From a virus (lineage: Duplodnaviria > Heunggongvirae > Uroviricota > Caudoviricetes): 30,959 nucleotides of DNA. The DNA lies in IMG/VR virus record IMGVR_UViG_2531839474_000010, positions 1 through 30,959 of that record, one strand, 5' to 3'. A program made the translations under genes and the position numbers. Each line of letters opens with the position of its first letter. Positions within the stretch are counted from its first letter, which is position 1. The notes under the pieces were generated by a model. The model did no database searches. It saw nothing but the letters and a program-made list of their open reading frames with translations, and was not told where the DNA came from. Positions 1-8,704 of the stretch are shown here, piece after piece.

Positions 1-1254
1 ATGCTGGAACAAATGGGCATTGCCGCGAAGCAAGCCTCGTATAAATTAGCGCAACTCTCCAGCCGCGAAAAAAATCGCGTGCTGGAAAAAATCGCCGATG
101 AACTGGAAGCACAAAGCGAAATCATCCTCAACGCTAACGCCCAGGATGTTGCTGACGCGCGAGCCAATGGCCTTAGCGAAGCGATGCTTGACCGTCTGGC
201 ACTGACGCCCGCACGGCTGAAAGGCATTGCCGACGATGTACGTCAGGTGTGCAACCTCGCCGATCCGGTGGGGCAGGTAATCGATGGCGGCGTACTGGAC
301 AGCGGCCTGCGTCTTGAGCGTCGTCGCGTACCGCTGGGGGTTATTGGCGTGATTTATGAAGCGCGCCCGAACGTGACGGTTGATGTCGCTTCGCTGTGCC
401 TGAAAACCGGTAATGCGGTGATCCTGCGCGGTGGCAAAGAAACGTGTCGCACTAACGCTGCAACGGTGGCGGTGATTCAGGACGCCCTGAAATCCTGCGG
501 CTTACCGGCGGGTGCCGTGCAGGCGATTGATAATCCTGACCGTGCGCTGGTCAGTGAAATGCTGCGTATGGATAAATACATCGACATGCTGATCCCGCGT
601 GGTGGCGCTGGTTTGCATAAACTGTGCCGTGAACAGTCGACAATCCCGGTGATCACAGGTGGTATAGGCGTATGCCATATTTACGTTGATGAAAGTGTAG
701 AGATCGCTGAAGCATTAAAAGTGATCGTCAACGCGAAAACTCAGCGTCCGAGCACATGTAATACGGTTGAAACGTTGCTGGTGAATAAAAACATCGCCGA
801 TAGCTTCCTGCCCGCATTAAGCAAACAAATGGCGGAAAGCGGCGTGACATTACACGCAGATGCAGCTGCACTGGCGCAGTTGCAGGCAGGCCCTGCGAAG
901 GTGGTTGCTGTTAAAGCCGAAGAGTATGACGATGAGTTTCTGTCATTAGATTTGAACGTCAAAATCGTCAGCGATCTTGACGATGCCATCGCCCATATTC
1001 GTGAACACGGCACACAACACTCCGATGCGATCCTGACCCGCGATATGCGCAACGCCCAGCGTTTTGTTAACGAAGTGGATTCGTCCGCTGTTTACGTTAA
1101 CGCCTCTACGCGTTTTACCGACGGCGGCCAGTTTGGTCTGGGTGCGGAAGTGGCGGTAAGCACACAAAAACTCCACGCGCGTGGCCCAATGGGGCTGGAA
1201 GCACTGACCACTTACAAGTGGATCGGCATTGGTGATTACACCATTCGTGCGTAA
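1..1254 (+). CDS. proA: Gamma-glutamyl phosphate reductase, complete 417 aa
   Basis: Full-length ORF from ATG at 1 to stop at 1254; translation recognised from memory as enterobacterial ProA. Host gene. Confidence 0.93.
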
Positions 1255-1368: not shown

Positions 1369-1444
1369 GCCGATATAGCTCAGTTGGTAGAGCAGCGCAT
1401 TCGTAATGCGAAGGTCGTAGGTTCGACTCCTATTATCGGCACCA
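1369..1444 (+). tRNA. thrW: tRNA-Thr, anticodon CGT
   Basis: 76-nt sequence GCCGATATAGCTCAGTTGGTAGAGCAGCGCATTCGTAATGCGAAGGTCGTAGGTTCGACTCCTATTATCGGCACCA with cloverleaf arms, anticodon loop CATTCGTAATG and 3' CCA. Known integration target for P22-type integrases. Confidence 0.93.
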
Positions 1445-1458
1445 TTAAAATCAATAAG

Positions 1459-2622
1459 TTACACATCATTAGTACCTTCCTTATTTTTTGACTGGGACAA
1501 ATTTGGGACCGATGGGTTCAGGATCGAGTCTATTTGCCGTGCGTGTTCGGTAAGGTGATTAGGTGCAAGGTGAGCATATCGACGAACCATTTCGATAGAC
1601 TCCCAGCCTCCCATTTCCTGTAACACTGACAACGGGACTCCGGCTTGAACCAGCCAACTTGCCCAGGTGTGTCTCAAGTCGTGAAATCTGAAATCATCAA
1701 TACCAGCCCGTCTCAGCGCCGCTTTCCAGGCTGTGTTTGCGTCATACCGCATCTTCCTTACTGTTGGCGCTTTCGTTCCGTCTGGTTTGGTACAGCTTTC
1801 CTTGTACACAAATACCCAACGGTGATGATTCCCGATTTGTTTTTTCAATACGCGACATGCAGTATCATTCAGCGCAACGCCAATTGCGCGGTTTGATTTA
1901 CTCTCTTCCGGGTTTATCCATGCCACCCGGCGCTGCATATCTATTTGTTGCCATTCAAGGTTGATGATGTTCGAGCGTCTTAAGCCTGTTGCCAGTGCAA
2001 ATTCAACAACAGACTTTAATGGCTCCGGACATTCATCAATCAGCCTTTGTGCTTCATGGGGCTCCAGCCAGCGGATCCGTTTATTCTTTGGTTGAGGCAC
2101 TTTAATAATTGGTGCCTTATCCAGCATTTTCCATTCACGCTCTGCGGCTCTTAGTAGGGCCTTTATAAATGAAAGATGCGTAGCCTTCGTTGCAACGGAC
2201 GCTGGTTTTGGCGTGTATTCTGGAACAGGTTTCCCTTTTTTTCTGCATGCTTCTGCCCTGAGTTTCCAGTTTTCCTCATGACGCCGGTTCGTCATTTTCT
2301 GCATTGCTGAATAAATTTTTGATTCAGTAATGTCTCTTAGTTGCATTCCTGCGAAATGTTGAAGCCAGAATCCGATCCGGCTTTTGTCATCGTCCAGTGA
2401 TTTTTTATGTGCTTTCTCTTCAAGCCACCTGACACACGCTTCCTCGAACGTTATATCAGGTATTTCACCAAGTTTGCTGACCCGCCATGCTTCAGCCTTT
2501 AGCTTGTCATGGAGTTCTGTCGCCTGCCTTTTGTCCTTTGTTCCAAGAGACTGTTTAAATCTTTTACCGTTCGGCAATGTGAAACTGGCGTACCATATTT
2601 CACCTCTGCGGAAGAGTGACAT
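1459..2622 (-). CDS. int: Tyrosine-type phage integrase, P22 Int-like, 387 aa
   Basis: 387-aa ORF beginning [33 protein letters not shown], with C-terminal HDLRHT and RY tyrosine-recombinase motifs; lies directly beside the tRNA. Confidence 0.93.
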
Positions 2623-3755: not shown

Positions 3756-4313
3756 TCATGCAGCCTCCCGACGGGCAAGAATCCTTGAGCCGAACGCCAT
3801 CAACTCTCCACGATCAACGGTCGTAAAGTGGCAGTGTGTACGGGGGTATGGGTGCCAGATAATGAGCATCGAGCCTTTATTATTTCCACTGACGGGTTTC
3901 CCGGTGAGTGGGTTAATAAATGCCAGTCGTCCTGCCGTGATGAATCTGACCTCACTGGCGGTTTGTATCGCTTCATGAAACCATCCGACAGATGTGTCAG
4001 CAGGCAATAACATTACACATCCCACACTACTGAATTTGTTTTCAGTGGCTGCCTTTTTCACAAAAGGGGAAATATTGCTGTATGGTGGATTCAACCAGAC
4101 ATAACCAGAGGCATATCCCATTGCTTCAGGCCATGAAGTGGTTAATGTGTTCTGCTCCTGTGAGATAAAAAGCCGACATAGTCGGTTTTTTTCGTTGGCT
4201 GCAGCATCAAGTTGAAAAACGAACTCTGCATTCAGCGCAGCAAAAATCTCTGGTGGTGTGCGCCAGCTGTCGCGATGTTCGGCAGGAGTATTGCTTCCGG
4301 TGAAATCAGTCAT
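3756..4313 (-). CDS. Phage-type DNA N6-adenine methyltransferase (Dam family), 185 aa
   Basis: Contains WLNPPYS (the NPPY motif IV of N6-adenine MTases) in a protein of the size of the small phage Dam family; no cognate restriction gene nearby. Confidence 0.8.
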   Translation of the reverse strand: MTDFTGSNTPAEHRDSWRTPPEIFAALNAEFVFQLDAAANEKNRLCRLFISQEQNTLTTSWPEAMGYASGYVWLNPPYSNISPFVKKAATENKFSSVGCVMLLPADTSVGWFHEAIQTASEVRFITAGRLAFINPLTGKPVSGNNKGSMLIIWHPYPRTHCHFTTVDRGELMAFGSRILARREAA

Positions 4314-5931: not shown

Positions 5932-6228
5932 TTATACCTCTGAATCAATATCAACCTGGTGGTGAGCAATGGTTTCAACCATGTACCGGATGTGTTCTGC
6001 CATGCGCTCCTGAAACTCAACATCGTCATCAAACGCACGGGTAATGGCTTTTTTGCTGGCCCCGTGGCGTTGCAAATGATCGATGCATAGCGATTCAAAC
6101 AGGTGCTGGGGCAGGCCTTTTTCCATGTCGTCTGCCAGTTCTGCCTCTTTCTCTTCACGGGCGATCTGCTGGTAGTGACGCGCCCAGCTCTGAGCCTCAA
6201 GACGATCCTGAATGTAATAAGCGTTCAT
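5932..6228 (-). CDS. gam: Gam, host RecBCD inhibitor, 98-aa short form
   Basis: Translation [47 protein letters not shown]... matches the lambda GamS region. Confidence 0.93.
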
Positions 6229-6303
6229 GGCTGAACTCCTGAAAATGGCTGTGAAAATATCGCCCGCGAAATGCCAGGCTGATTAGGAAAACAGGAAAGG
6301 GGA

Positions 6304-6714
6304 TTAGCGATTCAGGCCGTTACCGCGTCCGTCGAGAAAAACTTCCACGAGCAAATCACGGGTATAAGTGCGCTCGATGCCGCGATGCAGATAAAGCCGT
6401 CCGCGTAAATTAGCTGATGCAGTCCAGGTACCATCTTTGTGTTTGACCAGCATTCCTGGCATGACCGCACCTCGATTAACGGTCTGCGTTCCGTAATGTT
6501 GATGAACCATAAAAACTCCTGCCCGTAAGCTGGGCTGCTGAACATATAGAGACTTCTGCGCGTATTCAGGCGGTGGATGGCCGCCGGTTGTCATAACTAA
6601 GTCGCCTCGTTGAAGCGACTGAGGTATGAAGTGTTGAGTTGATTTCAGCTGGTCACACCGACGTTCACGCGTCCGCTTCACCCCTCGCACTCCCCGGAGC
6701 CTGCTGAAATTCAA
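6304..6714 (-). CDS. Hypothetical early-left protein; first gene downstream of the putative pL/OL; start uncertain (6714 or ATG at 6594)
   Basis: 136-aa ORF with an Arg-rich N-terminus ([15 protein letters not shown]) ending just upstream of gam. Function unknown. Confidence 0.4.
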
Positions 6715-6769
6715 GCTGCGGATCTAAGCGGTCATCGCAACGGTGAAGTTATAAATTTTGTGATACCAA

Positions 6770-6870
6770 CATCGATGCAATAGCATGACAATAGCAATGG
6801 CTATTGATGTAGTCAATAGCAATTAGTATTGATAATGTTTGATATACTTGTTCTGATTGATAATTAAATG
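6770..6870. promoter_or_regulatory. Putative left operator/promoter region (OL/pL)
   Basis: AT-rich intergenic DNA with three direct CAATAGCA copies (6778, 6789, 6814), the palindrome CAATAGC-AATG-GCTATTG (6789..6806) and three ATTGAT motifs (6802, 6828, 6856). The same motifs recur between cI and cro. Confidence 0.4.
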
Positions 6871-7059
6871 AATTTTTATAAAAAAGAGTATGAAGACTTA
6901 TTGGTGTGGCTGAAATTTGTACAGCTTTAATGTGCCTCGTGACAGAGGGGCATCGGGTTGTGGTGAGCTCGGTAGGTTGGCAGCAAATTTAATCGAATAT
7001 TGGTAGTCTGAGTTCTTATGTGTATTTTTTAGTCAGTTGCTAAATGATACATAAATGAC

Positions 7060-7096
7060 TTATTAGCCCCGCCATCGCTTTGTACGGGGCGTTTAT
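7060..7096 (-). terminator. Candidate intrinsic terminator directly after the SIR2-like gene, possibly bidirectional
   Basis: GC stem GCCCCG (7066..7071) / CGGGGC (7085..7090) followed on the plus strand by GTTTATTTAATTT; sits next to the stop of the 7097..8704 gene, separating it from the putative OL. Confidence 0.45.
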
Positions 7097-8704
7097 TTAA
7101 TTTATGTTTTCAACATTTCCATGAATCAACAAGTCGTAGGCAAGAAATAGTTTCCTATACTGGGTTTTTAAATTGTCAACGTCGCATGCCTTGAATTGAA
7201 CAAACGCTTCTTTTTTAACATAATCTTCAATCTCCTCTTTGGGGATATTTTTTATGTTCTTAATGACTATAGACAATTCTTTGTACTTTTTGAACGTTGC
7301 ATTCTTTATATCTTTGATGTTGGTGTAAATTTTATTTGCATTGATTTTATCTAAGGTGATTTTATTGAGCAAGTCGTCTAGTTTTCCGTGGCGTTCAATG
7401 CGTTGATTTAGTTTTAACACATATTTAGCTGGCAAACTTAACTCTTTCAAATTACATGAGGTTATAGTTTTTGAAAATGGAAGCTGTAATGAGTTTACTG
7501 AACCTAATATGAAATCTATGGCTAATTTATTAGATATTTCATTTTTATCAAATAAGTAGTCTTCAAGATAATTTATTTCTTTAACTTGTGTGAATACATA
7601 CTTTTTATCGCCTAGAGCAACAACTAAATTTTTTCCTTGTTTAACACTTTCTTCAAGTCTGTCTAAGTCAGAAGGTGAAACCAATAGAGTATCTAAGTGC
7701 CCTTTTTCACCCTCATTAATGATAAGTGTTTTAATGGCTCTTTGATACCTTAAAACATCATAAGGTGAGAGCCCTTCATCAACAGCACTGATCTCATCAT
7801 AGATCTGTTTATAGTTATCTGTTTTAACAGATGTATATGTAATTTGTAGCTGTTGATCGGTAATCTGTTTTGGTACTACTTCCTGTTCATTCTCTTTATA
7901 TTCAATCAAAATTATTCTTTCAGCTGATTTTCGACCATCTTCTCTAGGTAGTTGTGAGGAAAAATCAGAAAGAAGTTTCTTTACATTCCTGTCAGTTAAA
8001 GAATATCCAAGAAAAACTATTGGATTTTTAATCATGTTAGATAGTATCTTGGCACTAATGAGTATAGATTTGTTGTCATATTTTTCGTAATCATCTTTAT
8101 TTATGATTATTGAGTGTGGATCCTTTATATCACCATGGATTTTGTATAACTCACTCCATCCAATAGTATCTTCGAAAAAACCATTATTTCCAATATAGAG
8201 TTTTGGAGTTACATTTTGCTCTTGAAGTAAATTTTCTATGAAAGCATCATAATTTGTAGTGATGATTATCTTGGCCTTTTTTATTAATGTTTTAAATGAT
8301 GCTAATTCATCAAGATTTACATCCTTTCTGATTGTGTTATTAGAAAATCTTTGGCATATAGCGTATTTAAATGGTGAAATATCTTCACTAAAAACCCTCT
8401 TGGCATCTAGTCCATTTAATTTTAATTTGCCAGTCCTAAACAATAGATTGTAATCATTTTCAATTTTACTTGCTGCCTCTGTATAAATCTTATGATCGAT
8501 ATCATTATCACTGTTATTTTTATGTGATTCTTTTATTGTTAAAAGATAACTATAGAAATCATTTGTGGGATTTGTTATTTTCCAATACTCGTTTAATAGC
8601 TCTTCCCACGTTGGGTAGTTCTCTAAATATCTTTTTGAAATGCCTGAGCCAATAAAGACTATTGGGTAATTTTTGAATTCAAAATTTTTTTTTGACATAT
8701 CCAT
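7097..8704 (-). CDS. SIR2-family (SIR2_2 / ThsA-DSR-like NADase fold) protein with an uncharacterised C-terminal domain, 535 aa; candidate anti-phage effector
   Basis: Ordered motifs: Gly-rich loop VFIGSGIS (res 16-23), TTNYD (res 149-153; N151 codon at 8252..8254), KIHGD (H190 codon at 8135..8137), FLGYSLTD (res 231-238). Asn-to-His spacing is 39 residues, close to the roughly 40 recalled for ThsA/DSR2. Strongly AT-rich (about 30% GC by eye) against a roughly 50% phage background. Same strand as cI, immediately downstream. Confidence 0.75.
   Translation of the reverse strand: MDMSKKNFEFKNYPIVFIGSGISKRYLENYPTWEELLNEYWKITNPTNDFYSYLLTIKESHKNNSDNDIDHKIYTEAASKIENDYNLLFRTGKLKLNGLDAKRVFSEDISPFKYAICQRFSNNTIRKDVNLDELASFKTLIKKAKIIITTNYDAFIENLLQEQNVTPKLYIGNNGFFEDTIGWSELYKIHGDIKDPHSIIINKDDYEKYDNKSILISAKILSNMIKNPIVFLGYSLTDRNVKKLLSDFSSQLPREDGRKSAERIILIEYKENEQEVVPKQITDQQLQITYTSVKTDNYKQIYDEISAVDEGLSPYDVLRYQRAIKTLIINEGEKGHLDTLLVSPSDLDRLEESVKQGKNLVVALGDKKYVFTQVKEINYLEDYLFDKNEISNKLAIDFILGSVNSLQLPFSKTITSCNLKELSLPAKYVLKLNQRIERHGKLDDLLNKITLDKINANKIYTNIKDIKNATFKKYKELSIVIKNIKNIPKEEIEDYVKKEAFVQFKACDVDNLKTQYRKLFLAYDLLIHGNVENIN

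Follow-up and report, generated by a model that had tools for sequence, protein, structure and literature searches.

A SIR2-family gene in a prophage immunity region

The window, meaning the whole stretch of DNA that was analysed (30,959 nucleotides; IMG/VR virus record IMGVR_UViG_2531839474_000010), is a prophage integrated beside tRNA-Thr(CGT), and the positions of its features are collected in Table 1. The junction of the integrase gene, tRNA-Thr(CGT) and the host gene is the likely attachment site. The genes run in the order integrase, Dam methylase, exo, bet, gam, kil region, SIR2 gene and S24 cI-like repressor; beyond the repressor, on the opposite strand, lie YdaS (cro-like), YdaT, O and P. 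The usual nin, Q and lysis genes are absent after the IS3-type transposase gene that follows P, and terminase and myovirus-type late genes come next. The prophage is either mosaic or rearranged. In the Escherichia coli O157:H7 copy of the SIR2 locus (locus L001), by contrast, the nin region is normal.

Table 1 Positions of the features in the window (numbering from its first nucleotide).
Feature	Position	Strand	Details
Aldehyde-dehydrogenase-family host gene	1-1254		
tRNA-Thr(CGT)	1369-1444		Adjoins integrase
Phage integrase	1459-2622		
Dam-type DNA adenine methyltransferase	3756-4313		PF05869; early-left region
136-aa ORF	6304-6714		Between gam and the SIR2 gene; no Pfam match
Putative left operator/promoter	6775..6820	-	21-bp perfect palindrome GCTATTGACTACATCAATAGC; promoter/hairpin scan, motif search
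SIR2-family gene	7097..8704	-	535 aa; ORF list, composition, PADLOC, phrog_2695, RefSeq
C-terminal all-alpha domain	7100..7579	-	Residues 376-535, ~10 helices
Neck	7580..7786	-	Residues 307-375; conserved, low-confidence model
SIR2 (SIR2_2, ThsA-like) domain	7787..8704	-	Residues 1-306; GSGIS glycine loop at 19-23
cI-like repressor (HTH + Peptidase_S24)	8811..9539	-	Pfam; RefSeq in L001
Putative right operator	9545..9585		cI/cro-like spacer, same GCTATTG motifs as left operator
IS3-type transposase (rve, HTH_21)	12479-13366		Directly after replication gene P
Tail sheath gene	21419-22915		

The open reading frame was confirmed at 7097-8704 on the minus strand (535 aa), and the segment on which the initial annotation had focused is internally consistent: in the translation, bases 7097-7927 correspond to residues 260-535 plus the stop codon. 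The gene forms an AT-rich island, with a GC content of 31.7 % against ~0.46-0.52 in the flanks, and this low GC marks it as horizontally acquired cargo. The richness in Lys, Asn and Ile that had been attributed to residues 260-535 proved not to be specific to that region. Residues 1-259 are equally rich (K 11.2, I 10.8, N 9.7 %, compared with K 12.3, I 10.1, N 7.6 % for residues 260-535), and since the two halves of the protein are alike in this respect, the bias stems from the low GC content of the gene as a whole.

The start of the gene (8696-8704) offers two ATG codons in frame, Met1 and Met3. An AAGG Shine-Dalgarno-like motif is located 3 nt from the Met1 ATG and 9 nt from the Met3 ATG, and RefSeq takes Met3: in the near-identical locus L001 (99.6 % DNA identity) the annotated product is a 533-aa 'SIR2 family protein' starting at the third codon. 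The true start of the gene is probably at 8698.

The cI-like repressor gene, encoded on the same strand, immediately precedes the SIR2 gene and is therefore its likely co-transcription partner; to judge from position only, the two are probably co-transcribed. Downstream, the palindrome GCTATTGACTACATCAATAGC overlaps a promoter-like sequence, TTGACT-17-TATTGT (6788-6820), and further GCTATTG half-sites are found there. The motifs shared between this site and the spacer on the far side of the repressor suggest that left and right candidate operators bracket cI and the SIR2 gene. For the interval between gam and the SIR2 gene, RefSeq gives one short 'cell division inhibitor' gene and leaves ~590 bp before the SIR2 gene unannotated.

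Window 6200-9600 was compared with related lambdoid phages. In phages whose gam/kil and cI flanks are 96-97 % identical to those of the window, the gap between these flanks is occupied by GevT/GevA, HipA/HipD, an ASCH-domain protein or a transmembrane protein. The rexAB position is thus a hotspot for cargo genes. The RexAB proteins of lambda and their mechanism are unrelated to the protein studied here, and their genes occupy the same slot of the immunity region, between the repressor, which lies upstream, and the left operator/promoter. Such a slot implies that the gene is expressed in the lysogen and excludes other phages.

Domain layout and catalytic residues

A full-length structure was predicted with AlphaFold2 from 46 homologues (mean pLDDT 83.5). 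The only Pfam domain found on the whole protein was SIR2_2 (PF13289), at residues 146-285 (E 1.3e-23). In the predicted structure the strands at residues 264-269, 278-283 and 288-295 and the helix at 298-306 belong to the SIR2 Rossmann-type fold, and the alignment to ThsA (HMMER; PDB 6lhx, 8bto) extends to residue 310. The SIR2 domain is followed by a long helix (314-333), by two segments with pLDDT <50 (337-344 and 357-371), and by about ten helices spanning residues 376-528 with pLDDT ~86-97. A separate model of residues 307-535 only gave the same layout. The non-SIR2 part of the protein thus begins at about residue 307 (window 7100-7786), and the confidently folded extra domain comprises residues 376-535. 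The initial annotation had placed the boundary at residue 260, which is too early by ~50 residues if counted to 307, or by ~115 if counted to 376, because the SIR2 fold in both the model and the ThsA alignment reaches ~306 and ~47 SIR2 residues were included in the supposed extra domain. Its description of residues 260-535 as helical applies from residue 298 onward in the models; the residues before that form SIR2 strands.

The sequence marks looked for in SIR2 NADases of anti-phage type are present, namely a SIR2_2 domain, its glycine loop and a paired Asn and His. Residues N151 (8252-8254) and H190 (8135-8137) align with N112 and H152 of ThsA, the residues whose mutation abolishes the NADase activity of that enzyme. 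All 46 homologues share N151, the TTNYD motif and the GSGIS loop without change, and H190 is kept in at least 90 % of them. As judged from these sequence features, the gene product is a probable NAD-destroying SIR2 enzyme. A structure search returned KomC, SeThsA, AVAST5, FAM118B, EfAvs5 and SIR2-HerA as the closest folds; all of these SIR2 proteins are anti-phage or immune proteins, and several have been solved as helical filaments. It is quite improbable that the protein is a lysogenic-conversion enzyme outside defence, such as a protein deacylase or ADP-ribosyltransferase that modifies a target of host or phage origin and recognises it through the tail.

A family-specific C-terminal module

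The C-terminal tail was compared with known domains at the level of both sequence and fold. No recurrent family was found by Pfam scans of 30 tail sequences, and NCBIfam gave no match on the protein. Neither a comparison of the tail profile with all PDB sequences nor a Foldseek search of the tail against 350,542 PDB chains produced a significant match, the latter giving nothing at E <=0.001 (best 0.27). The best hit in the profile comparison, to PadR/LmrR-type regulators over residues ~392-486 (E 0.077), is weak, and it is the observation that would speak for a degenerate winged-helix DNA-binding unit within the helical domain through which the protein senses phage DNA, an idea that is given very little weight here. 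The sole resemblance in fold was a weak one to HEAT/ARM-type helical repeats, of a generic kind, and no internal repeats were found in the tail by hhalign of sub-blocks. By eye, the tail had been described as free of any recognisable HEAT-like motif, the very type to which this weak resemblance points.

The same description had listed SLOG, TIR, Macro and nucleotide-binding motifs as missing from the tail, which was borne out by the Pfam, NCBIfam, PADLOC and PDB searches. Neither SLOG/STALD nor Macro was found in the tail by Pfam or PADLOC; the PADLOC models for ThsA match residues 147-259 only, i.e. the SIR2 part. Homology to SLOG had been named beforehand as the refuting result, and it was searched for and not found, the tail being all-alpha and SLOG alpha/beta. 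The presence of a large non-SIR2 C-terminal module that matches no described domain is supported by the sequence and fold searches.

The distribution of the tail was determined with a profile of residues 307-535 searched against 1.84 billion representative proteins, and 104 matches were obtained at E <=0.001. The full-length matches are all 515-546 aa long and carry the tail at ~300-535, and the weakest of them still have an N-terminal SIR2_2 domain. Short matches are fragments; a contig end truncates one of them, and another is a remnant that begins with the end of a SIR2 domain. Since the tail is seen only behind this one type of SIR2 domain, it is specific to the family and not a shuffled module. 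A 341-aa protein of the representative library, P0172, consists of a DegT-type aminotransferase N-terminal part joined to residues 149-335 that match the tail (E 9.6e-27), and may be a chimera produced by assembly or gene calling.

The three parts of the protein differ in conservation. Mean pairwise identity among the 46 homologues is 59 % in the SIR2 core (residues 146-306), 52 % in the neck (307-375) and 35 %, the lowest of the three, in the helical domain (376-535). Seven neck residues (G311, P314, L337, L341, V361, A363 and G365) are invariant. A conserved motif, LDxxLVSPxDLxxLE...GKNxVVALGDKK, covers neck residues 337-371 (window 7592-7696), and pLDDT is <50 at 337-344 and 357-371 in both models. 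Based upon these predictions, the stretch 337-371 may require an oligomer or a binding partner in order to fold. Because the neck is strongly conserved but unmodelled, the regulatory element may be the neck and not the helical domain.

The fastest evolution of the helical domain fits a specificity module; faster change is also expected of a mere scaffold under weak constraint. The tail could accordingly be mainly an oligomerisation scaffold, holding either a resting oligomer or an active filament, with sensing carried out by the neck, by the helical insertion of the SIR2 domain (residues 33-142) or via a change in a host metabolite. The closest solved SIR2 relatives act via tetramers and filaments, and a neck that is as conserved as the catalytic core and poorly modelled as a monomer is what would be expected of assembly-dependent folding. 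Moreover, the tail is never joined to another effector, in contrast to sensor modules of the usual portable kind. A pure scaffold, however, is not expected to diverge much faster than the remaining protein, and in one-protein defence systems recognition is usually carried by the non-effector part. The scaffold reading is considered unlikely. The role of sensor or autoinhibitor, which we prefer for the tail, is plausible by analogy and from the evolutionary rate only.

Comparison with known systems and proposed mode of action

The protein belongs to a family that has already been catalogued. PADLOC assigns residues 1-528 to profile positions 1-526 of 528 of PDC-S25 (PDLC04967, E 1.3e-235; the second PDC-S25 model is PDLC04968), the tail alone matches positions 263-526 of the PDC-S25 model (E 1e-98), and phrog_2695 is matched over the full length (E 8.1e-203). 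On its sequence the window protein is a member of PDC-S25 / phrog_2695, and nothing in that sequence sets it apart, so the 'new variant' suggested in the initial annotation was in fact known as a PADLOC candidate and a phage protein family. PDC-S25 is a bioinformatic candidate family only. One mention of it was found in the literature, a PADLOC prediction in an E. coli O157:H7 strain, and the literature searches yielded no functional study of the PDC-S25/phrog_2695 family.

The genomic neighbourhoods of relatives are diverse. In an unrelated prophage of Morganella, whose replication module differs, the repressor is followed by the SIR2 gene in the same order as in the window. A 44 % identical homologue in Streptococcus phage Javan227 lies between integrase and repressor, the Enterococcus faecalis copy adjoins restriction-modification genes and a HepT/MNT pair, and the Bacillus velezensis copy comes after the lysis genes of a PBSX-like element. 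Neighbours differ among the window and loci L001, L002, L003, L004-6 and L007, and no conserved partner gene was found across them. The neighbourhoods examined contained no HerA, short Argonaute/APAZ or KomA/KomB gene, the neighbours being the repressor, kil/gam and unrelated genes. In the window and five other loci, no TIR, cyclase or other signal-making gene was found beside the SIR2 gene.

Among characterized systems, the SIR2 part is closest in sequence to that of ThsA of type I Thoeris (SIR2-SLOG; PDB 6lhx, 8bto, 7uxt), and the C-terminal module of the window protein differs in being all-alpha, with no SLOG/STALD. Membership in type I Thoeris was rejected, as the protein has no SLOG/STALD tail and no ThsB (TIR) gene is adjacent in the window or the five loci. 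KomC of the Kongming system is a 264-aa SIR2-only protein that works with partner proteins, whereas the window protein has no Kom partner nearby, and SIR2-HerA systems need HerA. Avs5/AVAST5 (SIR2-STAND) proteins possess a STAND NTPase, and the solved Avs5 chains are 768-833 aa long as against 535 aa here; no NTPase domain was detected in the window protein by Pfam or NCBIfam. DSR1 and DSR2 are one-protein SIR2 systems, like the window protein, which gave no match to DSR profiles or structures. The large helical-repeat C-terminal region of DSR2 has been reported to recognise a phage structural protein, the tail tube, and among known systems DSR2 offers the closest functional parallel to a sensor formed by an alpha-helical tail.

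The kinship with ThsA raises the further alternative that the tail binds a small-molecule signal, as the SLOG domain of ThsA does with isomers of cyclic ADP-ribose. The signal would be a nucleotide of phage origin or the product of a signalling enzyme whose gene lies elsewhere in the host. The SIR2 domain of the window protein is nearest to ThsA in sequence and near to KomC and SeThsA in fold, and SeThsA is reported to be activated by a signalling nucleotide. This reading is nevertheless improbable, given that none of the six loci has a signal-making gene adjacent, that SLOG/STALD and Macro went unmatched, and that the tail is all-alpha whereas the known receptors SLOG and Macro are alpha/beta folds. 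No ligand-identifying feature was seen in the tail.

The reading that is cautiously favoured is that of a one-protein, prophage-carried abortive-infection NADase in which the neck and the fast-evolving helical domain together form the trigger module. In the lysogen the SIR2 gene would probably share a transcript with the cI-like repressor, like rexAB in lambda, and residues 1-306 would constitute a ThsA/KomC-like SIR2 NADase that is held inactive. Upon infection by another phage, the C-terminal module (neck 307-375 and helical domain 376-535) would lift the inhibition, most likely by direct binding of a phage protein. The analogy with the C-terminal region of DSR2 points to a phage protein bound by the helical domain as the likeliest trigger. 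Release would probably drive higher-order assembly or filaments, as in the closest solved SIR2 relatives, whose structures make activation by assembly likely. NAD+ would then be hydrolysed, and the infected cell would no longer support phage growth. A more specific form of this proposal, which is put forward only tentatively and may well be wrong, is that residues 376-535 represent a new fold class of direct phage-protein receptor and that neck residues 337-371 act as a strand-exchange element or latch that turns binding into SIR2 filaments. If true, this would amount to a minimal, partner-free coupling of recognition to NAD+ depletion, residing in the immunity regions of lambdoid prophages, among them prophages of E. 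coli O157:H7.

Among the effectors of bacterial immunity, SIR2 NADases form a major class, with relatives that act in the innate immunity of humans, and the main question about them is how each one is switched on. The PDC-S25 family offers a compact case, a single 535-aa protein with no partner gene and with a regulatory module that has no known relative. Finding its trigger would extend the list of phage sensors by a new type of recognition module. Homologues of ~530 aa occur in the Enterobacterales (Leclercia, Kosakonia, Yersinia, Proteus, Providencia, Morganella and Xenorhabdus) and in the Firmicutes (Enterococcus, Streptococcus, Listeria, Carnobacterium and Bacillus), the family also being carried by temperate phages of streptococci and other Firmicutes, with identity to the window protein reaching down to ~41 % among the matches listed. 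The E. coli allele was present at >=99 % identity in 166 of 5426 complete genomes, always on the chromosome, and many of these were O157:H7. As the family is common, it may shape which phages, therapeutic ones included, are able to infect the strains that carry it. In Lactococcus phage BK5-T, a 36 % identical homologue at 23715-24914 covers residues 13-412 only and carries an annotation of two ORFs, so that this copy is either split or truncated.
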